64,000 nt of DNA from Rhodospirillales bacterium (GTDB lineage Bacteria > Pseudomonadota > Alphaproteobacteria > Rhodospirillales > UBA2165): assembly GCA_030745835.1 (NCBI GenBank), contig JASLNU010000077.1:4521-68520 (forward strand), read 5' to 3'. Numbering within the stretch: position 1 is the stretch's first letter; each line of letters opens with the position of its first letter. A program made the translations under genes and the position numbers. The notes below the pieces were generated by a model. That model was not told where the DNA came from. It searched no databases and saw only the letters and a program-made list of their open reading frames with translations. Positions 3,834 to 63,238 of this stretch are shown here, one piece after another.

Positions 3834-5171
3834 ATGTCCGGGGAAATGCTGGAAATTCTGCAAGGCCTGCTGGCCCGCGCCAAAAAGGCCGGCGCCGACG
3901 CCGGCGACGCGGTCCATATCGAAAGCCGCTCGCTGTCGGTGGGCCAGCGCTTAGGGGAGCCGGAAAAGCTGGAGCGTTCGGAAAGCGCCGATGTCGGTTT
4001 GCGCGTTTTCGTTGGCAAGAAGCAGGCCATCGTTTCGTCTTCGGACATCGCCGAGGAGACCCTCGCTGAATTGGCGGAACGGGCCGTCGCCATGGCCCGC
4101 GCGGTGCCCGAAGACCCCTATTGCGGGCTCGCCGAGCCCGGTCAATTGGCCACCGATATTCCGGCCCTCGATATGTGCGATCCCGCCGAGCCCAACGCTG
4201 AAACCCTGATCGATTGGGCCAACCGGGCCGAGGACACGGCGCGCGCCGTCGAGGGGGTCAGCAATTCAGAAGGCGCCGAGGCGGGCTGGGGCCGGGCCCA
4301 GGTTTCGGTGATCGCCAGCAACGGCTTTTCACAATCCTATGCCGGCTCCCACTATTCCCTGAGCGCCTCGGTGCTGGCCGGCAGCGGCACCGGGATGGAG
4401 CGCGATTACGATTACACCGGCGCCGTCTATGGCGGCGATCTGGAAACCCCGGAAGAGATCGGCCAAAACGCCGGGGAGCGCACCGTCAAAAGGCTGAACC
4501 CGAAGAAAGTAGCGAGCGGCCAGGTGCCCATCGTCTATGATCCGCGCGTATCCAGGAGCCTGGTCAACCATTTCGCCAACGCCATCAACGGCGCCGCCAT
4601 CGCCCGCGAAACCAGTTTCCTGAAGGATTGCATGGACCAGCGGATATTCCCCGCGACGGTCAATATCATCGACGATCCGCACCGCCACCGGGGCCTCCGC
4701 TCGAAACCCTTCGACGGCGAAGGCGTCGCCAACAAGCGCCGCAATGTGATCGAGGCGGGCACCCTGACCACCTGGTTCCTGGATCTGCGCTCGGCGCGGC
4801 AATTGGGGCTGGAAACCACCGGGCACGCGTCCAGAGGCGCCGGCTCGCCGCCCTCGCCCTCGGCATCCAACCTTTACATGGACAACGGCGATATCGGCCG
4901 CGATGCGCTATTGAAAGACGTCAAATCGGGCCTCTACGTGACCGAACTGATCGGCTTCGGGGTCAACGGCCTGACCGGCGATTACAGCCGCGGCGCCGCC
5001 GGCTTCTGGATCGAGGATGGCGAACTCGCCTACCCGGTCTCAGAAGTGACCATCGCCGGCAACTTGAAGGACATGTTCCTGGAACTGACCGCCGCCGACG
5101 ACCTGAAACTGCGCTACGGCGTCGATGCGCCGACCTTGCGCATCGACGGCATGACCCTGGCCGGGACTTGA
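3834..5171 (+). CDS. pmbA: PmbA/TldD-family metalloprotease
   Basis: 445 aa. The C-terminal region ...GDYSRGAAGFWIEDGELAYPVSEVTIAGNLKDMF... is characteristic of PmbA/TldD. It starts 6 nt after ubiD. Confidence 0.8.
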   Translation: MSGEMLEILQGLLARAKKAGADAGDAVHIESRSLSVGQRLGEPEKLERSESADVGLRVFVGKKQAIVSSSDIAEETLAELAERAVAMARAVPEDPYCGLAEPGQLATDIPALDMCDPAEPNAETLIDWANRAEDTARAVEGVSNSEGAEAGWGRAQVSVIASNGFSQSYAGSHYSLSASVLAGSGTGMERDYDYTGAVYGGDLETPEEIGQNAGERTVKRLNPKKVASGQVPIVYDPRVSRSLVNHFANAINGAAIARETSFLKDCMDQRIFPATVNIIDDPHRHRGLRSKPFDGEGVANKRRNVIEAGTLTTWFLDLRSARQLGLETTGHASRGAGSPPSPSASNLYMDNGDIGRDALLKDVKSGLYVTELIGFGVNGLTGDYSRGAAGFWIEDGELAYPVSEVTIAGNLKDMFLELTAADDLKLRYGVDAPTLRIDGMTLAGT

Positions 5172-16826: not shown

Positions 16827-17750
16827 TTAGCCGAGCGCGGCGAACAATTCCTCGCCCAGCTCGGCGCGCGCTTCATCGACGACGGGCTGCACGGCTTGCT
16901 TGAAGGCGGCGCGCTCGGCATCGGTCATGTCCAGGGGCTCGATTCCGGCGGCGCGCAATTGGGCCATCATCTCCGCATCCTCGGCGGCGGCGAAACCGCG
17001 CTGGGCGCTGGTGGCGATCCCGGCGGCCTCTTCCATTGCGGCGCGCATATCGGCGGGCCGGGCATCGAAAATCTGTTTATTGCAAAGCAGCAGCGAGACA
17101 CCGAACAGGTGCCCGGACAGGGTGAAGTACGGGTGGTGCTTGTGGACGCCGAACTGATAGCTGTTGGTCAGCGGGTTTTCCTGGGCGTCGACCTCGCCCG
17201 AGGCCACTGCCGCCGGATAATCGGCGACATCGATAAACACCGGCTCGAACCCCAGCCGGCGGAACGATTTCTGGTGCAGCTCGGAGTTCATGGAACGAAT
17301 TTTGAGGCCCTGGCAATCGGCCGGGCTGCGCAGCGGCCGCGCGTTGTTGGAGAAATGCCGAAAGCCGTTGTCCCAGAAGGCGAGCACGCGAAAACCGGTG
17401 TTTTCGGCGAACCGGGCCTTTAACAGTTCGCCGAGCCCGCCGTCGAGGGCGGCGTAGGCCTTTTCCCGGCTGTCGATCAGGAACGGCAGATCGAAGACGC
17501 CGATTTCCGGCACCCTTCCCGCCAGATAGCTGGAAGCGAAATAGCACATGGTCAGCTGGCCGGTTTCCACCAGATCCAGCAGATCGGCGGCCTTGGCGCC
17601 CGGGGTTTCGGTGATGTTGGCTTCCAGCTGGAACAGAACGCGGGCCCCAAGGCGGGTAACAAGCTCGTTGCCGAATACCTCGGCGCCCCGGGTGTGCACC
17701 GAAGCGTCCCCCTGGTAGCGTCCGAAATTGATGGTGATGGTGGGCATCAA
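16827..17750 (-). CDS. TRAP-transporter DctP-family solute-binding protein homologue lacking a signal peptide (orphan)
   Basis: 307 aa. ...FASSYLAGRVPEIGVFDLPFL...RVLAFWDNGFRHFSN... matches DctP-family binding proteins. The ORF begins MMPTITINFG with an in-frame TAA 6 nt upstream, so no leader peptide is possible. There is no adjacent dctQ or dctM. Confidence 0.8.
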   Translation of the reverse strand: MMPTITINFGRYQGDASVHTRGAEVFGNELVTRLGARVLFQLEANITETPGAKAADLLDLVETGQLTMCYFASSYLAGRVPEIGVFDLPFLIDSREKAYAALDGGLGELLKARFAENTGFRVLAFWDNGFRHFSNNARPLRSPADCQGLKIRSMNSELHQKSFRRLGFEPVFIDVADYPAAVASGEVDAQENPLTNSYQFGVHKHHPYFTLSGHLFGVSLLLCNKQIFDARPADMRAAMEEAAGIATSAQRGFAAAEDAEMMAQLRAAGIEPLDMTDAERAAFKQAVQPVVDEARAELGEELFAALG

Positions 17751-17900: not shown

Positions 17901-17972
17901 ACAGCCCCAACGAAAAATTATTGGGGGATGGCATGGCTGGCCACGCGGGCGTCCGGTCGGGCACGGGAACCA
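17901..17972 (+). repeat. Intergenic repeat family, copy 2
   Basis: ACAGCCCC..TGGGGGATGGCATGGCTGGCCACGCGGGCGTCCGGTCGGGCACGGGAAC is the same consensus as copies 1, 3, 5 and 6. Confidence 0.55.
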
Positions 17973-18015
17973 GTATTCTTCTCGCACCGCACCAGATAAT
18001 TTTCTCACCGTCTTT

Positions 18016-18043: not shown

Positions 18044-18251
18044 GGGGTGGGGGGGCAAAACCCAGCATCGCGCCAAGACCGACGCCCGCCTGGCCAACCA
18101 TTCCACGCCTAAGCGGGCTGCATCGATTTCCCACCATACCGGATCACCATCATTCCTACCGTTTCATACCTATTTATACCGCTCCAACGGGTCAAGCCCG
18201 CCGCGCCAGCGCACCGCATATTCTTGAAGTAAATGAAGAAGGTTGAGTATA

Positions 18252-18266
18252 GAACAAAAAAGGAAC
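18252..18266 (+). promoter_or_regulatory. GAAC-N7-GAAC motif (form of the alphaproteobacterial LexA/SOS operator)
   Basis: Exact GAACaaaaaagGAAC. It sits in a 35-nt block (GTATAGAACA...GAACAA.TGCAAG.AAA) that is conserved at 37226-37260. Confidence 0.35.
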
Positions 18267-18288
18267 AATTGCAAGGAAATATGATAGA

Positions 18289-18344
18289 AGCAGCCCGGCT
18301 GGGGATGGCCGGGTCGGCCAGCCGGGCGTGAGGTACACTCGGAA
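18289..18344 (+). repeat. Intergenic repeat family, copy 3 (left bracket of the low-GC cassette)
   Basis: AGCAGCCCGGCTGGGGATGGCCGGGTCGGCCAGCCGGGCGTGAGGTACACTCGGAA. The reverse complement of 20435-20519 shares both ends (AGCAGCCCG ... ACTCGGAA). Confidence 0.6.
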
Positions 18345-18630
18345 ATATATTATGCAGGTGTAATACAAAACCTCCTCATTGCTTGTGGCGCCCCCATCCC
18401 GGCCTTCCCCCATGGCGGGGGGAAGCGCTATTTCGTGACAACGGTACACACATTTCACGGTTATTAGCCCTCTATTAGTATACTGTACCTAAAATAGCAT
18501 TCGCTCCTAATCAAGGGTGGCCACCATAGCAAGATTACGTTGCCGTATGACGTGAGAAGGTAGGTGAAAAAATTCAGTTCCAGATTATTTTTGAAAAATC
18601 AATTCCTACCGCCAAAGGGAAATCGTTCAA

Positions 18631-19497
18631 ATGCAATTCAACGACCTTTTAGAGAACCAGAGTATCGACCCGGAAACCGTTCTGGTGTTACGCCACCGTC
18701 CGTCCGAGCCGAAGCTGCGGGAAGTGTTTCCTTGGCTGGCGGCCGAGCGTCCAGAACTTTTTAACGCCTATCAACGCATTCAAACTCTTAAAGTGGAAAA
18801 ATCCATGATGAGGGCGAGTTACGTTGCTTCTTTCATCGGGCACGAGTCGGGGAAAGGACTGTTCGTTGGATTGTATCGAAGGGGCCGTTGGCGCCCGTTG
18901 AGCTATGAAGCGTATTGGAGAATGCGCTCCAGCAAGGATTTACGAAAATTTGGGCACGGCGGATTTGCAGGCGAGCGGGAGGCAATTCAATGGTTTAATC
19001 TACGCTTAACGGATTGCTACTCGGATTGGAAAGGACGGCTCGTCGTCAACTGGCCTCCGCCGGAACGTTCATGGTGGCGTTGGGCGGGCCGAAATCAATT
19101 CGCGGTTCATGCAATCCACGAAGAAAGCTTACTCGATCCACCGATGCCGGAGTGGGACAAACTGGATCTGACTTGGAACCAATTGGATGTTCTGCCCTCG
19201 AACCTCCAAGCGGCTCTTCGTCAATGGCGCGGTATCTATTACATCTTCGATGAAGAAAATAAAAAGGGATACGTGGGGGCTGCCTTTGGCCAAGACAATA
19301 TTTTGGGAAGGTGGCTTAACTATGCGAAATCCGGTCACGGCGGAAATAAAAAGCTTCGCAAGCGTGATCCGAGTAAGTTTCGTTTTACGATCCTACAGCG
19401 CGTATCTCCAGACATGGAATCCCAGGATGTCCAAAGACTTGAAGCATCATGGAAGGACCGTCTCCATACCAGAGAGTTTGGTATGAACGAGAACTGA
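18631..19497 (+). CDS. GIY-YIG nuclease-domain protein with an uncharacterised ~190-aa N-terminal domain
   Basis: 288 aa. The C-terminal GIYYIFDEENKKGYVGAAFGQDNILGRWLNY...FRFTILQ...RLEASWKDRLHT...MNEN supplies GIY, Y(V)G, Arg, Glu and Asn of the GIY-YIG core. GC content is lower than the flanks. AAGGGA lies 11 nt upstream of the ATG. Confidence 0.8.
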   Translation: MQFNDLLENQSIDPETVLVLRHRPSEPKLREVFPWLAAERPELFNAYQRIQTLKVEKSMMRASYVASFIGHESGKGLFVGLYRRGRWRPLSYEAYWRMRSSKDLRKFGHGGFAGEREAIQWFNLRLTDCYSDWKGRLVVNWPPPERSWWRWAGRNQFAVHAIHEESLLDPPMPEWDKLDLTWNQLDVLPSNLQAALRQWRGIYYIFDEENKKGYVGAAFGQDNILGRWLNYAKSGHGGNKKLRKRDPSKFRFTILQRVSPDMESQDVQRLEASWKDRLHTREFGMNEN

Positions 19498-19548
19498 TTA
19501 TCAAGTTTCTGGAATTCTTTTTCCTTTGACAATCATTGGAGGGTAGGA

Positions 19549-20106
19549 ATGGATTGGGACCGATTTGATAAAGCCCTATTTCGTTGCCTAAACGACATAG
19601 AGATTGTGAAAGCGCAGAGAACGGCGCACCAGGTGTTAAGGAAAACGGTTTCTAATTCGCGTGATGTTCGCTCTGGTTTTCCAGGTCTTGTAAATGCAGC
19701 ATTTAGTTTTTCGACTCAAGGGGTATTAGCTTTAATTTTGGAAAAACAAACTACGAAGGGACGGTCTGGATTTTGGTGGGTTCACCGTGAAGCGTTAAAT
19801 CACGTTTCCGGATATTCACCTGAACAGGAAGATATCGACTTTCTCAATGAATTTTCCTCAGCGATTAAGGTGTTAAGAGATAAATCCTTGTTTCACATTA
19901 GTGAAATTACGCTCCACGACCCGAAGACATTTCGGCAAAATACCGGTCTTACCTACAGAAAGATGGACAAAGCGATTTCAGTTTCGTTGGCCACGATGCG
20001 TGAAATTTTGAAACTTCGCCGTGGCTCAACCACCTGGAGTTCTGGAACTCTTGATGTAGCCACACTCCATTATGATGGCTCGGACATCCCAAGCATTTTT
20101 GACTAA
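19549..20106 (+). CDS. Hypothetical protein with an R-x5-H (HEPN-like) motif
   Basis: 185 aa and AT-rich, with GGAGGG 7 nt upstream of the ATG, lying 51 nt downstream of the GIY-YIG gene. The motif LRDKSLFH (R110...H116) resembles the R[ND]xxxxH HEPN signature. I recognise no other family features. Confidence 0.5.
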   Translation: MDWDRFDKALFRCLNDIEIVKAQRTAHQVLRKTVSNSRDVRSGFPGLVNAAFSFSTQGVLALILEKQTTKGRSGFWWVHREALNHVSGYSPEQEDIDFLNEFSSAIKVLRDKSLFHISEITLHDPKTFRQNTGLTYRKMDKAISVSLATMREILKLRRGSTTWSSGTLDVATLHYDGSDIPSIFD

Positions 20107-20298
20107 ATAGTCTTAGATTTATATTCGATTAGAACGTTGTATATATTTCATTTCGAGCTTGAAAATTGTTAGGTTTAAGAAGGAGTGGAGATACTGACAG
20201 AGTGGAAAGATGTCAGATAACTTGAGCCCCGAAATTGATGGTCAAAAGCGATATAAAATTCTTTTAGAGCACTATAGATGGGAACAATCGTCCTTTTA

Positions 20299-20327
20299 GA
20301 GCATAGGGGTCATGAGCATAGGGGTCA
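20299..20327. repeat. Tandem direct repeat GAGCATAGGGGTCA x2 (15-bp period)
   Basis: Copies at 20299-20312 and 20314-20327. CTTTTAGAGCA also occurs twice (20261, 20293). Confidence 0.5.
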
Positions 20328-20434
20328 GGTCTTGAATCGTGAATTTGCCTTCCTCCACGCTTCGACAATCTTGCTGCCGGAACGTGCCTTATTAACGCTG
20401 TGAGTTGTCAAGTCCGATCCCCGCATGAACTGAG

Positions 20435-20519
20435 TTCCGAGTCTAGCCGGACGGCCAATCGGCCAACCATGCCATCCCCGATTGGCCTGCTCCCGTGGGC
20501 CAACCCCATGCGGGCTGCT
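20435..20519 (-). repeat. Intergenic repeat family, copy 4 (long form, inverted; right bracket of the low-GC cassette)
   Basis: The reverse complement reads AGCAGCCCGCATGGGGTTGGCCCACGGGAGCAGGCCAATCGGGGATGGCATGGTTGGCCGATTGGCCGTCCGGCTAGACTCGGAA. It is near-identical to 38599-38687 and abuts or overlaps the glcB stop codon. Confidence 0.6.
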
Positions 20520-22692
20520 ACCCTGCTGCCGCCTTGGCCTCCCGCCGCCTTGCGTGCAGGATCGGTTCGGTGTAGCCGTTGGGCTGCTGCAAGCCCTTGA
20601 ACACCAGATCGGTGGCCGCCTGGAAGCCGACCGAGGCGCCGAAATCGGGGGCCATGGGACGGTAACCCGGATCGCCGGAATTCTGCCGGTCGACGACGGC
20701 GGCCATGCGCTGCATGGTCTCGGTCACCTGATCTTCGGTGCAAATGCCATGATGCAGCCAGTTGGCGATATGCTGGCTGGAGATACGTAAGGTGGCGCGG
20801 TCTTCCATCAGGCCGACATCGTTGATATCGGGCACCTTGGAACAGCCGACGCCCTGTTCGACCCAGCGGATGACGTAACCCAAAATGCCCTGCGCGTTGT
20901 TGTCCAATTCTTCCTGGATTTCCTGCTCCGACAGATTGGCGCCGCCCAAAAGCGGGATGGTCAGGATATCGTCGATATCGGCGCGCGGCCGATCCATCAA
21001 TTCATCCTGGCGCGCGGCGACGTCAACCTGGTGGTAGTGGATGGCGTGCAGGGTCGCCGCCGTCGGCGACGGCACCCAGGCGGTGTTGGCGCCGGCCATC
21101 GGGTGGCCTTGCTTGGCGTCCATCATCTGCTTCATTTCATCGGGCATCGCCCACATGCCCTTGCCGATCTGGGCGACCCCCTTGAAACCGGTCTCCAACC
21201 CGACATCGACGTTCCAATCTTCGTAAGCCGCGATCCAGGGTTCGCCCTTGATGACGTTTTTGCGCAGGAACGAACCGGCCTCCATGCTGGTATGGATTTC
21301 ATCGCCGGTGCGGTCGAGGAAACCGGTATTGATGAAGACCACGCGCTCGGCGACGGCACGCACGCATTCCTTGAGGTTGAGCGTGGTCCGCCGTTCCTCG
21401 TCCATGATGCCGATCTTCATGGTGTTCGGTTGAAGCCCCAGCGCCGTTTCGACGCGGCCGAAGATTTCCGCCGTGAAGGCGGCTTCCTCGGGGCCGTGCA
21501 TCTTGGGCTTGACCACATAGATGCTGCCCGAGCGGCTGTTCCGGTATTTGCCGCCGGCTTTCAGATCGTGGATGCAGATCAGGCCGGTCAGCATGGCGTC
21601 GAGCATGCCTTCCGGCACCTCGCCGCCGCCACTGGTCTCGACCGCGTCGGTATACATGTGGTGCCCGACATTGCGGATCAGAAGCAAACTGCGGCCAGGC
21701 AGGGTAAGGCCGCCGCCATCCGGCGCCGTGTATTCCCGGTCCGCTTCCAGGCGGCGGGTCATCATGGCGCCGCCTTTCTCGAAGCTATCCTCGAGATCGC
21801 CTTTCATCAGGCCGAGGAGGTTGCCATAGGCGAGCGCCTTGTCCTCGGCATCGACCGCCGAGATCGAATCCTCGAGATCCTGGATGGTGGTGATCGCCGC
21901 CTCGAGCGCGATATCCTTGACGCCGGCGGCGTGGTCCTTGCCGATCGCGTCGGTAGCATCGATCTGAATTTCGATGTGCAGGCCGTGATGGCGGAGAAGG
22001 ATCGCCGACGGCGCGCCCGCATCGCCAACATGGCCGGCGAACTGGTCCGCCGCCGCGAGCCCGGTTTCGCCGCCGCCGCCGAGGCTTACCGACAAGGCGC
22101 CGCCAACCACCGCGTAGCCGGCGGCGTCCCGGTGGCTGCCCTGGGCCAAGGGCACGGCCTGATCGAGAAAATCGGCGGCGAATTCGATCACACGGGCGCC
22201 GCGCACCGGGTTGTAGGCGCCGGCCCTTTCCGCGCCGCCGTCTTCGGAAATCACGTCGGTGCCGTAAAGGGCGTCATAAAGGCTGCCCCACCTGGCGTTG
22301 GCGGCGTTGAGGGCGAAACGGGCATTGGTCACCGGCACCACCAGCTGCGCCCCGGCGATGCTGGCGATTTCGGCATCGACATTCGCTGTCGTTACCTTGA
22401 AATCGCCGCCCTCGGGCAACAGATAGCCGATATCGGCGAGGAATTGCTTGTAGGCGGCGGCGTCATGGGGCTGGCCCCTGCGCTCCTGGTGCCAGGCATC
22501 GATCTTAGCTTGCAGATCGTCGCGTTTGTCCATCAGCGCCTTGTTTTTCGGCGCCAGATCGCCGACCATCTCTTCGAACGATGCCCAAAACGCATCCGCG
22601 TCGATGCCGGTGCCCGGCGCGATATCATCGGCGACCAGATCGGCGAGATTTTTGGCGATGGAAAGGCCGCCCTTTTGCACCCGTTCGGTCAT
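20518..22692 (-). CDS. glcB: Malate synthase G
   Basis: 724 aa. The N-terminus [36 protein letters not shown] and overall collinearity with GlcB support the call. Confidence 0.95.
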
Positions 22693-46217: not shown

Positions 46218-47147
46218 CTATTTTTTCCGTTTAGGCGGCAGATATTTCGCGGCATTTCCCTTGGTCGCGATGATGTGCTTGATGAAGACTTTCTGTTCAT
46301 GCTTCTTGCCGGAAAGCCAGTCGTTCATGATATTGACGCCCAATTTGCCCCAAACCATCGGGCTGACGACAACCGTCATATCGATGCTGCCTTTGATCAC
46401 CGCCTTGAGCGCCGGCGGCACACCATTGAGGCCGGTGATGATGACATTGGCTTTCTTGCCGGCGGTCGCAACCGCCTGACCGGCGCCCATGGCAATTTCG
46501 TCATTGCCGGCGTAAATAACCCTGACGTCGGGGTGGGCGACCAGAATATCCTCGGCCTGATTGAGGCCGCGCTCGCGGGTCAGGGCACCGGTTTGCTCAT
46601 AGACGATCTTCATGCCCGACTGTTTGCCCATGCTTTCTTTGAATCCGTCCGCCAGATCCTTGAACACATTGGCGCCCGCCGGGCCTGAAATCATCGCGAT
46701 TTTACCTTTGCCGCCCGCCTTACCGGCGGCCCATTGGCCGATGTCGCGGCCAATCAGTTTTGAATCCATGGCGACAAACAGTGTCTGATATTTGGATTTT
46801 GAACCGCGCGCGATGGAAATGATCGGGATCCCGGCATCATGGGCTGATTTATAGGCGGCGCCGGTGGCGATCGCATCAATCGGCGAGATCAGGATACCGT
46901 CAACTTTTTGGGCGACCAGATCCATGACACCGTTGACCTGCTTGTTGACATCTTCGTTGGCGGTAACGACACGGATTTTCCAGCCCAATTTCCTGGCCTG
47001 AATTTCGATGCCTTTGCGCATCACGATATAAAAGGGATTGGTGTCCGACGCCAAGGCGACGCCAATCGTTTTACCGGCGGCTTGCACCGCGGGCGAAGCC
47101 GCCAAAATGGCGGCCAGGCCGATAATCAGAGCCAATAATTTCTTCAT
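46218..47147 (-). CDS. Sugar ABC transporter periplasmic binding protein (RbsB-like)
   Basis: 309 aa with signal peptide MKKLLALIIGLAAILAASPAVQAA and a type I PBP pattern (KTIGVALASDTNPFY...). Confidence 0.85.
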   Translation of the reverse strand: MKKLLALIIGLAAILAASPAVQAAGKTIGVALASDTNPFYIVMRKGIEIQARKLGWKIRVVTANEDVNKQVNGVMDLVAQKVDGILISPIDAIATGAAYKSAHDAGIPIISIARGSKSKYQTLFVAMDSKLIGRDIGQWAAGKAGGKGKIAMISGPAGANVFKDLADGFKESMGKQSGMKIVYEQTGALTRERGLNQAEDILVAHPDVRVIYAGNDEIAMGAGQAVATAGKKANVIITGLNGVPPALKAVIKGSIDMTVVVSPMVWGKLGVNIMNDWLSGKKHEQKVFIKHIIATKGNAAKYLPPKRKK

Positions 47148-47216
47148 GCTAATCCTCCAGTTAAGATTGATGGGTGTTTGGTTCAGGTTGATATAATTCT
47201 TGCTTTGATATCCCGG

Positions 47217-48218
47217 TCAGGTTCGCCTGGATTTGATCTGGTCGGCGGCGGCGGCGGCGATAATCACCAGCCCGACGGCAACGCGTTGCCAATAGGAGTG
47301 CACGTTCAACAGGTTCAAGCCGTTTGCCAACACCATCATAATGAACACGCCGATCATACTCTTGTAAAGTTTACCGACCCCGCCATGCAGGGCGGCGCCG
47401 CCGAGGACGACGGCGGCAATCGACGTCAGTTCGTAAAATTCGCCGGCGGTCGGTTGGCCGGACTGTAGGCGCGAGGCCAGCATGACCCCGGCGACGCCGC
47501 CAAGGACGCCACACCAGACGTAAGCCGAGGTCACAACCCGCTTTACCTGAATACCGGCCAGGAATGCCGCCTCGGTGTTGCCGCCGGTGGCAAACAAGCG
47601 CCGCCCATAGGCCGTAAAATGCAACAACCAGTTAAATATGATGAACAAAATAACCGGCACCCAGATCAAGTAATGAATGCCGAGAAAACGGCCGCTGCCG
47701 AGTTCGAGGAAAATTTCCGGCAACCCATCCTCGCCGACGATCGGGCGGCCGTCGGTAATCAGCAACACGACACCGCGCACAATGACCATCGTCCCTAGCG
47801 TCGCGATAAAGGTATTCACCTTCAAATGCGATACAATGATGCCGTTGACGTAGCCAACCGCGGCGCCCGCCGCGATCCCGGCGGCGATCCCCAGCGGAAC
47901 ATTGGTTTCCAGCATAACCCAGGCGGAAACGCAGCCCGATAGCGCCACAATAGATCCAACCGACAGATCAAAACCGCCGGAAATTATGACGTATGTCATC
48001 CCCATCGCGACGATGGCCATCACCGACGCCTGCAAAAGAATATTGGAAAGGTTGACCGGCGATAAAAACCGATCGGAGAGCAGCGCCGTCCCCAAACAAA
48101 GCACAACCAGCGCCATCAACGGCATTTGGTCCAGAACCGAGACCAGCGTAAACCGTTTTTCGCCGGCTTCGAGCGCGACCGGCGCGGCCACGCTTTGATT
48201 TTCGCTACCGTTCGTCAT
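47217..48218 (-). CDS. Sugar ABC transporter permease (RbsC/AraH-like)
   Basis: 333 aa, multi-TM, with the motif ...GGFDLSVGS.... Confidence 0.85.
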   Translation of the reverse strand: MTNGSENQSVAAPVALEAGEKRFTLVSVLDQMPLMALVVLCLGTALLSDRFLSPVNLSNILLQASVMAIVAMGMTYVIISGGFDLSVGSIVALSGCVSAWVMLETNVPLGIAAGIAAGAAVGYVNGIIVSHLKVNTFIATLGTMVIVRGVVLLITDGRPIVGEDGLPEIFLELGSGRFLGIHYLIWVPVILFIIFNWLLHFTAYGRRLFATGGNTEAAFLAGIQVKRVVTSAYVWCGVLGGVAGVMLASRLQSGQPTAGEFYELTSIAAVVLGGAALHGGVGKLYKSMIGVFIMMVLANGLNLLNVHSYWQRVAVGLVIIAAAAADQIKSRRT

Positions 48219-49687
48219 CCGCCCAAAGCTTCCCTCAGATAACCTTCACTATATTCGCCTGATTCTCGGGACATACGGGCGACGATATCACCTTGCCGCA
48301 TGGCCAGGATATTATCACTCATATTGATAACCTCTACCATTTCAGAAGAAGCAAACAGCACACCGCCGCCTTGTTCGGTGAAATCTCTCATTAGCCTGTG
48401 GATGCGTGCCTTGGCGCCGACATCAATGCCGTCGGTCGGTTTATCGAGCAACAACACCTTGGGATTTCCCATCAGCCAGCGGGCAAAAATCACTTTCTGC
48501 TGATTACCGCCGGAAAGAAAACGAACCAATTTTTTCGGATCACGCGGCCGGATATCCAAAGTCTCCATCAGATCGTCGACGACATTGTTGATCCTTTTCA
48601 TGTCGAGCCGCCAGCCGTTCGATACCTCTGAAAGATGGGGCAAAACGATATTGTCGCGCACGCTTAAATCATACATCAGCGCTTTTCGCCGCTCGCCCGG
48701 CACCATTCCAATACCGTTATTAATGGCATCTTTCGGTTTTCTGAGGTTCAAATTATTGCCGGCAATGGTCAACGAGGTGGCGCTATCGCCGGCGCCGAAA
48801 AGCTTCTGCAAATATTCGGGCGTGCCGCTGCCAAGCAGCCCGGCCAATCCCAGCACTTCGCCACGGCGCAAGTTAAGCTCGCCATCATATTCAATAAGCG
48901 GATCGCCGAACTCTAGTTTATGGGGGTGATGCAATTCCTGCAGATCGCGGCCGGTCATCAAGCGGATAATATTTTCCTTCTCGATTTCACCGCGTATCGA
49001 GACATCAACGACTTTCCCGTCCCGCAATGTCGTGCAGCGGTCGGAAAGTTCGACGACTTCCTCGAGCCTGTGCGACACATAGATAATGCCGACCTTCTGC
49101 TCTTTAAGCGAATGAATGATTTCGAACAACCGCTCCGCTTCCCGGTGTTCAAGCGAAGCCGTCGGTTCGTCGAGGATCAGTATCCTGGCCTGATACAGAA
49201 GCGCCTTGGCGATAACCACCAACTGCCGTTCGGCGAAAGGCAACCTATTCACGGAAATATCGAGCGGGCCATGGTAGTTCAATCTTTTCAACGCTTCACC
49301 CGCCCGCTCCCGCATGCGGCGGCGGTCGAGCGCCGGAATAAAACCCAACCATCTTGTTGACGGTATTTCCCCGAGCGTAACGTTTTCAGCTACCGTCGCA
49401 TCGGGAACCAATTGCATTTCCTGAGGGATAATAACGATACCGGCATTCAGGGCTTCTCTCGGATCGGTTATTTCCGATGGCGCGCCATCAATGATTATTT
49501 CACCGGAATCCTTTTTATAAATTCCTCCCAGAATTCTAATAAGGGTCGATTTGCCGGCGCCGTTTTCACCGACCAGCGTGTGCACTTCGCCCGCCGCCAG
49601 ATCAAACGAAACCTTATTCAGCGCCTGGGTGCCGTAAAACTGCTTGGATATTTCGCGGACGGCCAACAGGTCCGTGTTATCAGCCAA
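48215..49687 (-). CDS. Sugar ABC transporter ATP-binding protein (duplicated ATPase, RbsA-like)
   Basis: 490 aa: Walker A GENGAGKST, signature LSGGNQQK, and two NBD halves. Its stop overlaps the permease start. Confidence 0.9.
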   Translation of the reverse strand: MADNTDLLAVREISKQFYGTQALNKVSFDLAAGEVHTLVGENGAGKSTLIRILGGIYKKDSGEIIIDGAPSEITDPREALNAGIVIIPQEMQLVPDATVAENVTLGEIPSTRWLGFIPALDRRRMRERAGEALKRLNYHGPLDISVNRLPFAERQLVVIAKALLYQARILILDEPTASLEHREAERLFEIIHSLKEQKVGIIYVSHRLEEVVELSDRCTTLRDGKVVDVSIRGEIEKENIIRLMTGRDLQELHHPHKLEFGDPLIEYDGELNLRRGEVLGLAGLLGSGTPEYLQKLFGAGDSATSLTIAGNNLNLRKPKDAINNGIGMVPGERRKALMYDLSVRDNIVLPHLSEVSNGWRLDMKRINNVVDDLMETLDIRPRDPKKLVRFLSGGNQQKVIFARWLMGNPKVLLLDKPTDGIDVGAKARIHRLMRDFTEQGGGVLFASSEMVEVINMSDNILAMRQGDIVARMSRESGEYSEGYLREALGG

Positions 49688-49745
49688 TCTCCCGTCTCCC
49701 TCGTCTTCGATAAGGTTATATTTTTTGTTAGACCTTGATCAATAA

Positions 49746-49758
49746 AGAATAGTATTCT
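49746..49758. promoter_or_regulatory. Palindrome AGAATA-G-TATTCT in the divergent promoter region (candidate TetR operator)
   Basis: Perfect 6-bp arms between the ABC operon (start 49687, minus strand) and the tetR-family gene (start 49830, plus strand). Confidence 0.3.
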
Positions 49759-49829
49759 CTAATAAGAAACAAAGAGTCAACCGGTAGATTCCGTTCGGCT
49801 CAGACAATTATAATACGATTAGGTAGCAG

Positions 49830-50426
49830 ATGGCCCAGGTTAAAAAGACATCGGTGCGCGACGCCATTTTGGAAAGTGCGACGGAACTTTTCACCGAACA
49901 CGGTTATTCCAATACGACACTCGCCGATATCGCCCGCGACGCCGCCATCACCATGTCAAATATATACAACTACTACGACTCGAAGCTCGATGTTTTGTAC
50001 GCCATTTACGAACCCTGGCTGGACCAACGGATCGAATATGTGGCGCAGGAAACAGATAAAATCGAAGACCCTAGGGAAAAAATGCGTTTTCTGTTGAAGT
50101 ATTTGTTCAGCGATCTGCCCGCCGACACCAATTGTTTCGCCAACAACTTCATGCAAGCCATCGTCACCCGGAAATCGGAAGAGAATTACTCTCGCGATCT
50201 GCTTCTGCGGTCCGAGGAAAAAATATCCGGGATCATTCGAAAAGCAGTGCCGGATACGGTCAAGGACGCCCTCGCCGATAACATTTTGACCCACCTCCTG
50301 TTTATGGCCCATGACGGTTTTGTCATCAATTACGCCCTCAACGGGCCGTCGCGCCGGGTCGACGCCATTGTCGATCTGCTTTGCAATCTGATTTTCAGTT
50401 CGGCCGCCGCCGATACTTCCTCTTGA
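49830..50426 (+). CDS. TetR/AcrR-family transcriptional regulator
   Basis: 198 aa with the N-terminal HTH ...FTEHGYSNTTLADIARDAAITMSNIYNYY. Confidence 0.85.
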   Translation: MAQVKKTSVRDAILESATELFTEHGYSNTTLADIARDAAITMSNIYNYYDSKLDVLYAIYEPWLDQRIEYVAQETDKIEDPREKMRFLLKYLFSDLPADTNCFANNFMQAIVTRKSEENYSRDLLLRSEEKISGIIRKAVPDTVKDALADNILTHLLFMAHDGFVINYALNGPSRRVDAIVDLLCNLIFSSAAADTSS

Positions 50427-57454: not shown

Positions 57455-58359
57455 GAAACCTTGCTCCGCCGCTCCGAGAGATATCCGACAATACCGTACG
57501 GTACGGTGAGAACGAAACCGATGAGCAAGATGCCCAAAATAATCAAATAGAGTTGCGGCGCATTGGCCCAGAGCAGTTCCGACAATATGACCAGCAGGCC
57601 GGCCCCGAGCAGTGGTCCCCTGGCGTCGTCGCTGCCGCCGATGATGGCCATGCTGACAATGGTGAAAGACAGCAGCGGATTGAAAACCTGCAAGGTCTCG
57701 AAATAGGTTGAGCGCAGCGCCATCAAGGCCCCGACCATGCCTGGGATGATCGCCGATATGGTATAAGCGGCGGTCTTGTAGCGGGCCACCGGGATACCGA
57801 TGGTTTCCGCCGCGACTTCATCCTCGCGGATGGCCAGCAGCCCCTGGCCAAAGCGGGAACGCCTGAGCGCCCAGGCGAGCAAGGTGGCGGCGACGGCAAG
57901 GAACAGCATGGCGTAGTAGATTTCCTCGGTCGAAGGCGCGCCGAACAGCAGGCGGCTGGCCTTTCCCAAACCCACTTCCACGTTGACGACGATAAATTTT
58001 ACCAGCTCGGCGATTCCGAAGGTCAGGATGACGAAATAGGGCCCCCGCACCCGGAGCACCGGCGTGCCGATGATAAAGGCGAATAGGCCGGCCAAAATCC
58101 CGGCCAGGGGAATCGCGACGAGCAACGGAATGGCCTGCCAGGTAACCACCGTGGTGTAGGCGCCGAGCCCGTAAAAAACGACATGACCAAGGGAAATATA
58201 TCCGGTCATGCCGGAAAGAATGACCCAGCTTTGCGTCAAGGCGATCCACATACAAAGGGTCAGGGCGACGGTCAGCGTATAGGCGCCGACCAGCCCCGGC
58301 AGGGCGACCGCCAGCAGGACCAGCGCGGCAAAGGAAATCCCGAGCCCCCGGCCACTCAC
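57451..58359 (-). CDS. livM: Branched-chain amino acid ABC transporter permease
   Basis: 302 aa and multi-TM. Its start and stop overlap both neighbours. Confidence 0.85.
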   Translation of the reverse strand: MSGRGLGISFAALVLLAVALPGLVGAYTLTVALTLCMWIALTQSWVILSGMTGYISLGHVVFYGLGAYTTVVTWQAIPLLVAIPLAGILAGLFAFIIGTPVLRVRGPYFVILTFGIAELVKFIVVNVEVGLGKASRLLFGAPSTEEIYYAMLFLAVAATLLAWALRRSRFGQGLLAIREDEVAAETIGIPVARYKTAAYTISAIIPGMVGALMALRSTYFETLQVFNPLLSFTIVSMAIIGGSDDARGPLLGAGLLVILSELLWANAPQLYLIILGILLIGFVLTVPYGIVGYLSERRSKVS

Positions 58360-59246
58360 CTGACCATCCTCCAGCCGCCCAAGAAACCCTGCGGACGGAC
58401 CAGCAGGATAAGGACGAAAACGCCGTAGAGCAGGACCGATTCATAGGTCGGCGAGGTCAGCGCGACGCCGTAAATCTGAAGAAAGCCGAGAAAATACCCG
58501 GCCGCTATGCCGCCGGTCAGATTACCCAGACCGCCCAGAATAATGACCACAAAGGCGGCGATGGTGAACGGAAATCCCATGAAGGGCGAGATTTGTTCGG
58601 TCATGCTGAGAAGGACCCCGGCCAGGCCGGTCAATCCGAAACCGAGGCAGAAGCTGACCAGTTGCACCCTCTTGATCTTGACGCCGACGATTGCCGCCGC
58701 CATCGGGTTCTGGATCAGGGCCTTGATGGCAAGACCGTAAATATTGATACGCAGGAATATGATCACCAGGAAGCAGATGATCAGCGTGACGATCAGCGTC
58801 ACCAGACGGTTCACGGTCATCGAGGCGCCGCCGAATTCATAGACGGTGTCCATATATTGATAAGCCCTCGGCGACGCCGTGAAGGCGAAGGAGGCGATGT
58901 TTTGAATAACCACCGAGACGCCGAAAAATATCAGAAGCGAGTTGGCTTCGATGCGCTCGATCATCAGGTCCGAGCCGAGTTGGCGCTGGAATAATCCGTA
59001 ATAAACGGCGGCGCCAATGGCCGCCGCCAGGGCCGCCGCGATAAACATCGAAACCAGCGGCGAGACATCGGCCAGGGTGAACAGCCAGTAAGCGACATAG
59101 GCGCCGATCATGATGATATCGCCATGCGCGATATTGAGCAGCCGCATGGTGCCGTAAACCAGGTTAAGCCCCAAGGCTATCAACGCATAAGCCGATCCCA
59201 GCACCAAAGCGGCGAACAGCAATTGGCCCGAGAAAAATACGTCCAT
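58356..59246 (-). CDS. livH: Branched-chain amino acid ABC transporter permease
   Basis: 296 aa and multi-TM: ...LNIAHGDIIMIGAY.... Confidence 0.85.
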   Translation of the reverse strand: MDVFFSGQLLFAALVLGSAYALIALGLNLVYGTMRLLNIAHGDIIMIGAYVAYWLFTLADVSPLVSMFIAAALAAAIGAAVYYGLFQRQLGSDLMIERIEANSLLIFFGVSVVIQNIASFAFTASPRAYQYMDTVYEFGGASMTVNRLVTLIVTLIICFLVIIFLRINIYGLAIKALIQNPMAAAIVGVKIKRVQLVSFCLGFGLTGLAGVLLSMTEQISPFMGFPFTIAAFVVIILGGLGNLTGGIAAGYFLGFLQIYGVALTSPTYESVLLYGVFVLILLVRPQGFLGGWRMVR

Positions 59247-59262
59247 TTCACTCTATTCTCGG

Positions 59263-59337
59263 AAAAAAAGGGGCCACTCATCCTTTTTGGAATGTAACCA
59301 AGATGCCAAAAAGATGAGCGACCCCCTTTTTGTTTTG
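59263..59337 (-). terminator. Long imperfect hairpin flanked by A- and T-tracts between the binding-protein gene and livH (intra-operon attenuator/terminator)
   Basis: GGGGCCACTCATCCTTTTTGG-(15 nt)-CCAAAAAGATGAGCGACCCC. On the minus strand it is followed by TTTTTTT. Confidence 0.5.
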
Positions 59338-59349
59338 TCGTGGCGCCGG

Positions 59350-60519
59350 CTAACGTTTCATGAACTTGCTGGTGGCGATCTTTTTCGGCCAGATCAGCTC
59401 CATTTTCCCGGCCTGTTGTTGCAGAAAGGCAACCGGCGTTATGGAGTTTTCGATACCCTTGAATTTGACCGGGCCATTGATCGTGTCGAAGGTATCGTTG
59501 GAGATCACCCGGCGCAGCTTATCCTTGTCTAGTCCCGCCTTGGCGACCGCCTGTTCAAGGATTTCCAGCGACATATAGGCAATAGCGGTATCCAGATAGT
59601 CCGGATTCATGCCTTTGTATTTGGCCTTGTAAGCTTCGAAAAAAGGCTTCGCCCGCGGCCAGGCTTTTTGCGCCGGGCTCCAGTGCCCCATGGTGACGAT
59701 ACCGTTGGCAAACTTGCCGAAAGCCTTGCCGAAGGCGTCGATGGTCGGGCCGACCAGCAGAAACTGGAACGGCGCATCGATGCCGATGCCCTTGGCCTGT
59801 CCCATATAGAGGAACGAATCCGCCGGATAAGCCAGGCCGATCACGGCGTCCACCTTGGCCTTTTTGATCGCCGTCAACATGGTCGTCATATCCTTGACGT
59901 CGGGCGGATATTGTTCGTTGACCTTGACTTCGATCCCGGCCTTTTTGAGCGCCGGCAAAAGAAATTGCCGGTTTTCGGACGAGAACGGCAGCACGTTGGA
60001 AATTACCGCCGCCGACTTGATGCCGTTGGCTTTGAGCAATTTAACCAATTCGGCCGCCACCCGATCGGGGAACATCGGTGTCGGGAACCAGATATTGCCG
60101 GGTTTGATCTGGCGGACGGCGACCGACGCCGCCGTGTTGCCGACCATCGGGAAATTGTACTTCTGCACGACGCCGGCGACATTCAGGTGATGCGGCGTTC
60201 CCCACGGGGCGATCAAAAGATCGACCTTGTCATCGGTGATCAGCTTCTCGTAAATCTGCGCCGATTTGGTCGGGTTGGATTCATCATCGTACCAGATCAG
60301 CTTGATCGGACGCCTGGTTCCGGCGACGTTCAGGCCGCCGGCCTTATTGACCAAGTCGGCCCAAAGCTCATACGCCGAAATTTGCGACGGCGCCGCCTTT
60401 GAAAACAGCCCGGTTTTGGCTATCGAATAACCAATCCGGATCGGTTCAGCCGCCTGCACGGCGAAACTGAACATAATGAGAGCAAACCCTAATACGAATA
60501 ACTTCAGTTTTTGTGACAT
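59350..60519 (-). CDS. LIV-type (type I PBP) ABC transporter substrate-binding protein
   Basis: 389 aa with signal peptide ...MFSFAVQAA and the start of the mature protein EPIRIGYSIAKTG. Confidence 0.85.
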   Translation of the reverse strand: MSQKLKLFVLGFALIMFSFAVQAAEPIRIGYSIAKTGLFSKAAPSQISAYELWADLVNKAGGLNVAGTRRPIKLIWYDDESNPTKSAQIYEKLITDDKVDLLIAPWGTPHHLNVAGVVQKYNFPMVGNTAASVAVRQIKPGNIWFPTPMFPDRVAAELVKLLKANGIKSAAVISNVLPFSSENRQFLLPALKKAGIEVKVNEQYPPDVKDMTTMLTAIKKAKVDAVIGLAYPADSFLYMGQAKGIGIDAPFQFLLVGPTIDAFGKAFGKFANGIVTMGHWSPAQKAWPRAKPFFEAYKAKYKGMNPDYLDTAIAYMSLEILEQAVAKAGLDKDKLRRVISNDTFDTINGPVKFKGIENSITPVAFLQQQAGKMELIWPKKIATSKFMKR

Positions 60520-60552
60520 ATTTCCATCTCCTGGTTTTACTTGAATTTAAAC

Positions 60553-61338
60553 TTAAACCGCCGAATAGACGCTCTTCGGTAAATAATGAAGGACACGCCT
60601 CTCCAATAGAACAACGGCGCCATAGGCGACAATTCCGACCACCGTCAACATGAAGATCGAGACGAAGACCAACGCCGTGTTGCCGGAGCCCTCGCCGAAA
60701 ATAAGCAGATATCCCAATCCGACGCTGCCACCGACCATTTCACCGACAACGACGCCGATCACTGACAGGGTGGCGGCGATGCGCAACCCGGAAAACAGGG
60801 GCGGCAGGGCGTCGTGAAATTCGATCAGCCTGAATATTTGCCACCTATCGGCGCTGAAGGTGCGCGCCAGATTAATCAAATCGGGATCGACGGTGCGGAT
60901 CGCGCCGAGAACATTGACCATGATCGGGAAGAATACGATCAATACCGCCACCAGAATTTTGGGGTAAACGGTAAATCCGAACCACAAAACGAACAATGGC
61001 GCAAAGGCCACCTTGGGCGCGATCTGCAAGGCCAGGATATATGGCGAAAGAATAAATTCGGCGCGCACCGAAATGCCCAAAATGTAACCGATAGTCATCC
61101 CGAGCAATGATCCGATGATAAATCCGGCCAAGGTTTCCAAGGCCGTAATACCGGTATGAAAGACCAGTTGTTCGGTTTGAAAGGCGCGCATGAATTCGTT
61201 GAAAACCGAAGAAGCGGTCGGAATGATGTAGGGCGGAATACCGAGCATACCGGGGCCCCATTCCCAGGCGGCGAGGAAGGCAAGCAGCACGGCTATGCTC
61301 GCCATCACGCCTCCGCGAAAAGACCTGGCCGTCTCCAT
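60553..61338 (-). CDS. NitT/TauT-family ABC transporter permease
   Basis: 261 aa and multi-TM, resembling SsuC/TauC. Confidence 0.85.
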   Translation of the reverse strand: METARSFRGGVMASIAVLLAFLAAWEWGPGMLGIPPYIIPTASSVFNEFMRAFQTEQLVFHTGITALETLAGFIIGSLLGMTIGYILGISVRAEFILSPYILALQIAPKVAFAPLFVLWFGFTVYPKILVAVLIVFFPIMVNVLGAIRTVDPDLINLARTFSADRWQIFRLIEFHDALPPLFSGLRIAATLSVIGVVVGEMVGGSVGLGYLLIFGEGSGNTALVFVSIFMLTVVGIVAYGAVVLLERRVLHYLPKSVYSAV

Positions 61339-61371
61339 CCCTGGCCGCTCCTTCGGAATTCGAAACGACGG

Positions 61372-62364
61372 TTATTGGATGAATTGATTGGTATACAAAT
61401 CATCCAAGGGCTGCGCCTTACGCACAATGCCGCTTTTGACGTAGAACTTTTGTAGACTGGCAAGACGCGCCCGGTCCATGGCGCCTATTTTTTTCTGACC
61501 GGGATAGACGTACTTATTATACATCGCGAAGACGCTCTTAATGTATTTGTCCTTGCCCTTGTTCTTGGCGACAAAGGCCGTGTAGTCCTTGGTTGCCTGG
61601 TCGGGATCGTTCATGATGCCGGCCATGCCCTTGAGCGTCGCCCGCACCAGTTTTTGCACCAGGGCTGGATTTTCCTTGATCGTTTTATCGGCGACCAGGA
61701 TCGCTTGCGCCATGCTTTTGAAGTAGTCGTCGGCCGGAAAGATTTTGACTTTCTTGCCGGCGCCGATGGCGATCGCCGTCCAGTCGGGAACGCTGGCCAT
61801 GGCGTCCGCCTTGCCGGCCATGAACAGTTTCCACACACCGGCGGGACCGGCGGCTTGGGCATTGATATCCTTGCGCGACAGGCCCTGACTGGCGAGCATC
61901 CCGAGGAGCGCGTAGAAAGTCGTATCCTGGAAGGCAAGCGTGGTGACGGTCTTACCCTTGAGGTCGGCGGGGCCGTTGATTCCCCGGTCGGCATGCGCGG
62001 TTAGATGCATTAAAGAGCCACCGCCCAAAACCGCGACGGCTTTGACCGGAATGCCGTTGGGACGGACGATCATCGATGTGTCACCGATACCGCCGCCGAC
62101 AACCGCATTACCGGCGCCAACCTGCTTGGCGACATCGACGCCGCCACGGGCCATCTGGAACTTGACGTTGAGACCTTCCGATTTGTAATAACCCCTTGCC
62201 TTGGCGAGCATCCAGGGTGCAAAGGCCGGCAGGAACGGCGGCGCCGGCAACAAATAAGTAACGTCTTCGGCCTGAGCCTTCTGGACATTACTCGCCGCCA
62301 GCAAGGTAGCAACCGCAACAACCGGAATGATGAACATTTTAGTTAGGACACTTTGCTTAGACAT
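61372..62364 (-). CDS. NitT/TauT-family (NMT1/SsuA-like) ABC transporter substrate-binding protein
   Basis: Signal peptide MSKQSVLTKMFIIPVVAVATLLAAS.... The ATG at 62364 has GGAGGA 6 nt upstream. Confidence 0.8.
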   Translation of the reverse strand: MSKQSVLTKMFIIPVVAVATLLAASNVQKAQAEDVTYLLPAPPFLPAFAPWMLAKARGYYKSEGLNVKFQMARGGVDVAKQVGAGNAVVGGGIGDTSMIVRPNGIPVKAVAVLGGGSLMHLTAHADRGINGPADLKGKTVTTLAFQDTTFYALLGMLASQGLSRKDINAQAAGPAGVWKLFMAGKADAMASVPDWTAIAIGAGKKVKIFPADDYFKSMAQAILVADKTIKENPALVQKLVRATLKGMAGIMNDPDQATKDYTAFVAKNKGKDKYIKSVFAMYNKYVYPGQKKIGAMDRARLASLQKFYVKSGIVRKAQPLDDLYTNQFIQ

Positions 62365-62416
62365 TATTTCCTCCATTGCTGATTAATTATCTCCACAAGG
62401 TACTTTATTTTTGGTC

Positions 62417-63238
62417 TTAAATCTTTACTTCATGTGCCATTTCATCGACACGCAGTAATTCCATCAAGCGGGTGACATATTCACCGACCCGGTTCGCCAT
62501 ATCGTGCCGGCGCGCCATCGGATTGGCGCGTTCGGGCAGGTCGACGTTGATTTCCTCTATGATCGTTCCGGGTCTCGGGCTCATCACCAGAATCCGGTCC
62601 GAAAGCGTCGCCGATTCCATAAGGTCATGGGTGATGAAAAGCGCCGTCTTTTTTTCCGACGCCAGGGTCTTGGCCAAATCCTGCTGCAACACCATTTTGG
62701 TCTGTGCATCGAGGGCCGAGAACGGCTCGTCCAGCAAAAGCACCTTGGGATCGACCGCCAAGGTGCGCGCCAGAGCCGCTCTTTGGCGCATGCCGCCGGA
62801 TAGTTGATGCGGATAACTATCCTCGAACCCGTCCAACCGGCATTTATGCAAAAGATCGAGCGCCTTTTCCTTGCGGGCCTTGGCGGGCACGCCCTGGATT
62901 TCCAAACCCAATTCCACGTTTTTGCAGATCGTGCGCCAAGGCAGGAGCAAATCCTTTTGCAGCATGAAGCCGACATGGGAATTGGGCTTGTCGACTATTT
63001 CGCCGTCCATAAAGACCTCTCCCAGGCTCGGCTGGTAAAGCCCCGAACCCATATTCAACAGCGTGCTTTTGCCGCAGCCGCTGGGCCCGATCAGGGACAC
63101 CACCTCGCAGTCCCTGATAGACAGGCTGACATTTTTTACCGCCGTCAGCACATCGCTGCCGTCGCCTCCCTTTATCGGGAAGTGCCGGGTGACATCGCGG
63201 AATTCGAGCCTGATATCAGCCATACTGTTACCCGCCAA
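62417..63238 (-). CDS. NitT/TauT-family ABC transporter ATP-binding protein
   Basis: 273 aa: GPSGCGKST, LSGGMRQRAALAR, LLLDEPFSALD. Confidence 0.9.
   Translation of the reverse strand: MAGNSMADIRLEFRDVTRHFPIKGGDGSDVLTAVKNVSLSIRDCEVVSLIGPSGCGKSTLLNMGSGLYQPSLGEVFMDGEIVDKPNSHVGFMLQKDLLLPWRTICKNVELGLEIQGVPAKARKEKALDLLHKCRLDGFEDSYPHQLSGGMRQRAALARTLAVDPKVLLLDEPFSALDAQTKMVLQQDLAKTLASEKKTALFITHDLMESATLSDRILVMSPRPGTIIEEINVDLPERANPMARRHDMANRVGEYVTRLMELLRVDEMAHEVKI

Follow-up and report, generated by a model that had tools for sequence, protein, structure and literature searches.

Does a small protein encoded directly behind a single-gene defense system work as a partner of that system, or is it a defense gene in its own right? 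The question is raised by contig JASLNU010000077.1 of a marine Rhodospirillales metagenome-assembled genome (MAG; GCA_030745835.1), of which we analyzed a stretch of 64,000 nucleotides (positions 4,521 to 68,520 of the contig), hereafter referred to as the window. Downstream of uzuA, which encodes the GIY-YIG protein of the Uzume defense system, lies a gene for a 185-amino acid (aa) protein. A preliminary description, made from the sequence alone, had presented this protein as an orphan and a possible minimal HEPN RNase, which would, if real, serve as the RNase or toxin or as the regulator in a two-component module with the nuclease. Our analysis favors a stand-alone, abortive-infection-type RNase of the AbiU2 HEPN family, located in a horizontally acquired defense islet, a reading to which we assign a probability of roughly 60%.

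The Locus of the 185-aa Protein

The features of the gene are as follows, AF2 denoting AlphaFold2 and ORF an open reading frame.

19538–19543, + strand: Shine–Dalgarno sequence GGAGGG, separated from the ATG by 5 nt, as seen in the sequence itself
19549–20106 (stop codon included), + strand: gene for the 185-aa minimal HEPN protein, a predicted divergent AbiU2-family member (ORF, homologues, AF2)
19741–19743, + strand: codon of E65, an acidic residue where core helix 2 ends and a candidate for the second position of the active site (E or D in 56 of the 57 sequences; role inferred)
19876–19896, + strand: codons of R110-D-K-S-L-F-H116, the predicted catalytic R-x5-H motif (R and H invariant in 57/57 sequences)

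The ORF matched its description exactly in position, strand and ATG start, as did the codons of the motif LRDKSLFH (R110 is AGA at 19876–19878, H116 is CAC at 19894–19896). Its GC content is 0.434, and 0.41 at third codon positions (GC3), compared with 0.604 for the window and a GC3 of 0.81 for the flanking core genes. That the gene holds the lowest GC of the window was borne out: the minimum over the 64 kb, calculated in segments of 558 nt, is 0.398 for the segment starting at 19731, within the ORF.

Homologues and Family Assignment

Direct scans agreed that the protein has no recognizable family features, with no match in Pfam, PADLOC or PHROG and only noise in NCBIfam, whereas its label as an orphan did not stand. 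A word-indexed search recovered five proteins, one identical to the window protein and the others 58–65% identical to it. Because about 80 positions are invariant in the alignment of these five close homologues, the conservation of R110 and H116, which are two of them, is uninformative at this depth. An exhaustive hmmsearch with the same alignment against 1.84 billion representative proteins yielded 65 relatives at E ≤ 1e-3 (E values from 1e-10 to 1e-3), nearly all of them 175–205 aa long. The resulting family alignment contains 57 sequences, with a mean column identity of 30% and with distant members only 17–25% identical to the query.

When every member of the alignment was scanned against Pfam, 43 of the 57 matched PF18734 (HEPN_AbiU2; best E = 7e-13), and each other Pfam family was matched by at most one member. 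The curated gathering score of PF18734, 26.8 bits, was surpassed by 5 of the 10 members checked individually. No match to this model was obtained for P0006 and P0007, the closest relatives of the window protein, or for the window protein itself, in the latter case even at E ≤ 10. A profile–profile comparison with hhalign nevertheless aligned the subclade of the window protein (7 sequences) with the other 49 over its full length (99.9% probability, E = 5.6e-33, 178 columns), with the R-x5-H motifs in register. Given the PF18734 matches of its relatives and this comparison, the window protein is, at the level of sequence profiles, a very divergent member of the AbiU2 HEPN family, which lies below direct detection by the Pfam model.

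Further searches gave no additional relationships. PADLOC models found no credible match in any of the 57 family members, a sequence-profile search of the PDB returned noise only, and tblastn found nothing in collections of phages and plasmids. A search for related loci with the close subclade retrieved only two metagenome loci and no viral ones. Comparison of the family by hhalign with one lone DUF4145-type HEPN-like protein, encoded near a close homologue, gave no signal, as is to be expected with a single sequence, and says little either way.

Active-Site Residues and Predicted Structure

HEPN domains are defined by an Rx4-6H motif with a polar N, D or H after the R and an acidic residue upstream, and a conserved acidic residue in helix 2 is typical of HEPN families (PMC3710099). 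An R-x5-H string by itself might arise by chance. In the 57-sequence alignment, however, no column other than R110 and H116 is invariant, and as the mean column identity is 30%, the motif is beyond chance. The family consensus around it reads IR[DN]K[TS]x[FV]HID, and the residue following the conserved R is D or N in 53 of the 57 sequences (D111 in the window protein, which thus has both the R110-x5-H116 spacing and the polar residue). Acidic residues are all but fixed in two columns, position 16 in helix 1 (E or D in 56/56) and position 65 (56/57), and R12, F75 and W76 are also near-invariant. The HEPN reading of LRDKSLFH in the preliminary description was therefore correct, the R and H being invariant and the family that of AbiU2.

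The AF2 model calculated from the 57-sequence alignment is all-alpha, with a predicted local distance difference test score (pLDDT) of 95.6 and a predicted template modeling score of 0.90; it replaced a model built with the five close homologues only, which had a pLDDT of 49. Helices are predicted at residues 3–33 (H1), 44–63 (H2), 93–114 (H3) and 136–158 (H4), with an insert at 64–92 between the second and third. E65 is found at the C-terminal end of helix 2, R110 at the C-terminal end of the helix 93–114 and H116 in the loop that follows. In its predicted secondary structure and topology, the protein thus has the HEPN helix arrangement as defined in PMC3710099. Foldseek searches of the PDB and BFVD with the model returned only generic helical bundles (E of at least 0.47); HepT (6m6w_H) was among these matches at a nonsignificant level (E = 2.8, TM score 0.26).

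Relationship to the Uzume System

18631–19497, + strand: uzuA, 288-aa Uzume defense protein with a C-terminal GIY-YIG nuclease domain (PADLOC UzuA, Pfam GIY-YIG)

The upstream protein is matched over its full length by the PADLOC UzuA model (PDLC03973, E = 9e-78) and by Pfam GIY-YIG (E = 1.9e-5); according to its description (bioRxiv 10.1101/2024.10.26.620412), Uzume consists of one gene, whose product has a GIY-YIG domain. As the 51-nt gap between the two genes (19498–19548) contains no promoter-like or terminator-like site, uzuA and the HEPN gene are probably cotranscribed in this lineage. A 14-nt complementarity between the uzuA leader (18597–18610) and the start region of the HEPN gene (19542–19555) was dismissed, since by our estimate it is close to chance level within 3 kb.

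The proposal of a two-component module with the GIY-YIG nuclease did not survive comparison with other Uzume loci. We searched 80 UzuA loci from distinct other species, including 4-kb flanks and all ORFs of at least 50 aa, with an AbiU2-like profile at E ≤ 1, and found an AbiU2-like gene in none of them; the HEPN gene is therefore dispensable for UzuA. What follows UzuA in these loci is a gene of variable size and orientation, and the largest cluster among 150 UzuA-flanking proteins consisted of two. UzuA has more than 2,152 homologues, compared with the five close ones of the 185-aa protein, and no UzuA was recognized beside relatives of the latter outside this lineage in the sampled loci, some of which are on very short contigs. 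In our reading, the two are independent defense genes sharing an islet, not a coevolved two-component system. In GC3, too, they are clearly unlike (uzuA 0.54, HEPN gene 0.41, against 0.81 for core genes), a hint that they have different sources or have resided in the genome for different lengths of time.

Gene Neighborhoods of the Relatives

In most sampled loci of AbiU2-like genes, a gene on the same strand lies closely upstream, and it is often a toxin or defense gene. The sampled arrangements are listed below, with R-M for restriction–modification.

L001: FRG/PDC-S15 gene upstream; the surrounding island also has an HNH effector, a resolvase and type I R-M
L002: AbiU2-like gene convergent with a SIR2 gene
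L003–L006: 227–242-aa protein of unknown function after the AbiU2-like gene; an ABC ATPase upstream in L003
L097: 250-aa protein of unknown function, its gene overlapping the AbiU2-like gene
L104: AbiU2-like gene about 17 nt after a BrnT/BrnA pair
L107: AbiU2-like gene followed by a Sel1-repeat protein and Mrr
L110: AbiU2-like gene after a nucleotidyltransferase gene; a 59-aa gene is also present
L112: AbiU2-like gene directly after gyrB

Comparison of these neighbors among the sampled loci showed none related to another and none recurrent. L001 (1–9602) is a dense defense island around a close homologue of the window protein, with a PDC-M68A-like HNH protein, the DUF4145-type HEPN-like protein mentioned above (motif RKIRNHFAH) and an unknown 255-aa protein. 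In L097 the 250-aa protein (787–1539) has a hydrophobic N-terminal stretch and no family match; a 7-nt overlap of its gene with the end of the P0006 gene, at the stop codon, suggests that it is a lineage-specific operon partner of P0006. The BrnT toxin and CopG-type (BrnA) antitoxin of L104 (4462–5576) and L105 (244–1358) form, with the AbiU2-like gene, a three-gene islet amid core metabolic genes, possibly an operon combining a toxin–antitoxin (TA) pair with a HEPN gene. In L107–L109 (4382–7646) a 183–189-aa unknown protein is encoded upstream, and the Sel1-repeat protein (8 repeats, E = 7e-77) and the Mrr restriction enzyme downstream; a Sel1-repeat and restriction-enzyme neighborhood such as that of L107 was listed for AbiU2 in 2013 (PMC3710099).

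The Islet, Its Flanks and Repeats

16827–17750, − strand: DctP-type solute-binding-protein gene, flanking the islet
17924–17974 (+), 18289–18334, 20429–20519 (inverted): copies of a G+C-rich repeat resembling repetitive extragenic palindromes (REP-like) around the islet
18150–20420, no strand assigned: low-GC two-gene defense islet of about 2.2 kb, horizontally acquired (GC 0.46–0.52, flanks 0.60–0.67)
20107–20517, no strand assigned: non-coding islet tail of 410 bp with low GC and short tandem repeats, in which no gene or structured RNA was detected
20518–22692, − strand: malate synthase G gene, flanking the islet

All 23 contigs read that encode the identical protein share this gene arrangement; they stem from many marine samples and include a Rhodospirillales MAG. 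A search for the empty site recovered no pre-insertion state, as all sufficiently long contigs with the identical DctP-type protein hold the islet. The tail carries tandem 14-mers, with GAGCATAGGGGTCA present twice at 20299–20327 and CTTTTAGAGCA also repeated. It contains no ORF above 41 aa and none that is credible (one of 29 aa lies at 20210–20299), its RNA fold is worse than that of shuffled controls (z = +2.26), Rfam has no match there, and a search for remnants of the neighboring genes of homologues found none. The tail is probably leftover cassette DNA.

The REP-like repeat, with the core GGGGATGGCATGGYTGGCC, occurs in 6 copies in the window compared with 0.07 expected. We rejected the flanking copies as terminal inverted repeats of a cassette: the same 19-mer is also found at the distant positions 2093, 38536 and 38641, and the repeat is thus a genome-wide REP-like intergenic element. 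Copies in opposite orientation do bracket the islet, and such repeats may mark integration or recombination hot spots. Other stretches of lower GC in the window (46218–50426 and 58356–63238) are ABC-transporter operons with periplasmic binding proteins, permeases, ATPases and a TetR regulator, and contain nothing related to defense.

Proposed Function and Alternative Explanations

The absolute constraint on R110 and H116, the polar and acidic residues of catalytic type that accompany them and the company of defense and toxin genes together argue for a stand-alone HEPN RNase. By analogy with the superfamily, the protein would be a metal-independent endoribonuclease, in which a homodimer would unite two R-x5-H motifs, with R110 and H116 aided by D111 and probably E65. 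The predicted RNase would stay inactive in uninfected cells; once a phage infects, it would cleave RNA of the host or of the phage and so halt phage production. RNase activity, dimerization, the role in phage defense, its trigger, the RNA target and metal independence are all predicted here from what is typical of the superfamily. Two points call for caution. To our knowledge, no AbiU2-family member has been characterized biochemically, either by a structure or by a demonstrated RNase activity. In Lactococcus, moreover, AbiUi alone gave resistance, and the addition of AbiUii lowered it (PMC13064643).

This lowering of AbiUi-given resistance in the archetype keeps alive a rival that we otherwise consider unlikely, namely that the HEPN protein is a modulator or accessory of the stand-alone effector encoded upstream, here UzuA, either dampening it or adding a second, RNA-directed layer. 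Such a role would be a looser, partner-promiscuous form of the regulator arm in the preliminary description. It agrees with the gene order of the archetype, where the HEPN protein AbiUii is encoded downstream of the nuclease-like and self-sufficient AbiUi, with the position of the HEPN gene, which follows uzuA closely in the same orientation and without an intervening promoter-like or terminator-like site, and with the closely spaced same-strand toxin or defense genes upstream of relatives elsewhere (FRG/PDC-S15 in L001, BrnT/BrnA in L104, the nucleotidyltransferase and 59-aa genes in L110). Specific regulation is hard to fit to upstream genes that are mutually unrelated and include the housekeeping gene gyrB (L112) and an ABC ATPase (L003); in addition, none of the 80 UzuA loci carries an AbiU2-like gene, and the strict invariance of R and H points to an enzyme, not to a binding-only regulator. 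A more far-reaching possibility, on which we would place little weight, is that AbiU2-type minimal HEPN proteins are promiscuous "rider" modules, which insert directly downstream of diverse stand-alone toxin or defense effectors (the AbiUi nuclease, the GIY-YIG protein UzuA, FRG/PDC-S15 and BrnT/BrnA) and are cotranscribed with them, tempering their toxicity or adding an RNA-targeting back-up layer.

Two further alternatives are less likely than a stand-alone RNase. It is improbable that the protein is the toxin of an unrecognized TA pair serving addiction or stress unrelated to phages, with a small protein or RNA of the islet (for instance from the 410-bp tail) or UzuA as antitoxin. HEPN domains are common as TA toxins (PMC3710099), one relative lies beside a nucleotidyltransferase (L110) and another directly after BrnT/BrnA (L104), and the islet tail has its short tandem repeats; yet the islet contains no MNT-type nucleotidyltransferase or other antitoxin-like gene, the tail lacks a longer ORF, a stable fold and an Rfam match as described above, and no small neighbor is conserved among the homologues. 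We regard as very improbable a catalytically inert helical protein or decaying passenger gene in which R-x5-H is a relic. The absence of a direct family match, the rarity of the close subclade (five clusters), the lack of a biochemical precedent for the family and the loss of D118 in the close subclade (kept by 48 of 50 distant members) would all be compatible with decay. They have to be set against an intact full-length ORF in every homologue, the identical protein in the 23 marine contigs, R and H residues that are invariant at about 20% identity, a very confident AF2 model and a good Shine–Dalgarno sequence.

Comparison with Known Systems

The AbiU2/AbiUii HEPN family (PF18734; AbiU locus of Lactococcus lactis) was defined by Anantharaman et al. 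2013 (PMC3710099). The window protein belongs to the same family by profiles, shares the motif R[DN]Kxx[FV]H and is likewise small and all-helical, of roughly the same size as the Pfam model with its 193 positions; as in the archetype, its gene lies downstream of a nuclease-type defense gene. The differences are its position, with P0006 and P0007, below detection by the Pfam model, an insertion of about eight residues near residue 160 shared with its nearest relatives, and an S, T, A or G at position 118 in this group, where nearly all distant members have D. Furthermore, the upstream partner is UzuA and not AbiUi-like, and the host is a marine Rhodospirillales MAG rather than a lactococcal plasmid.

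AbiV, AbiD/F and AbiJ are also small single-domain HEPN proteins giving abortive infection, although they belong to separate HEPN families without a sequence relationship detectable here. AbiV has been reported as an RNase, with host rRNA as its probable substrate (bioRxiv 10.1101/2024.05.05.592566; PMC13064643, Table 1), and it provides the best functional analogy for the probable action of the window protein. In AbiV the canonical H is typically absent and another H takes its place (PMC3710099), whereas the family of the window protein keeps both canonical R and H.

A further comparison is with the HEPN-MNT toxin–antitoxin modules. HepT-MntA has a minimal HEPN toxin whose Rx4-6H active site is formed at the dimer interface. 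The window has no adjacent MNT nucleotidyltransferase, the neighbors of the HEPN gene being uzuA and non-coding DNA, and a nucleotidyltransferase was found near the AbiU2-like gene of only one distant relative (L110). With Uzume, finally, the gene shares a low-GC islet containing a full-length UzuA, and probably a transcript, yet the 185-aa protein is no part of that system, in which UzuA has no conserved neighbor.

Significance

The finding is otherwise an ordinary one, a small defense islet with two independent genes, and it corrects an over-reading: adjoining Uzume does not make a two-component system. Should AbiU2-type proteins prove to be riders on diverse effectors, they would be partner-independent defense modulators, which would also explain why AbiUii lowers the activity of AbiUi. 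The analysis extends the AbiU2 HEPN family by a subclade which escapes the Pfam model and was matched by no PADLOC model, so that such genes go uncounted in defense surveys based on these models. For a "hypothetical protein" present in many contigs of marine Rhodospirillales, it provides a prediction open to testing, that of an RNase whose two catalytic residues are named. As the family has a predicted active site and its RNase activity is so far predicted only, much could be learned from any member amenable to expression.
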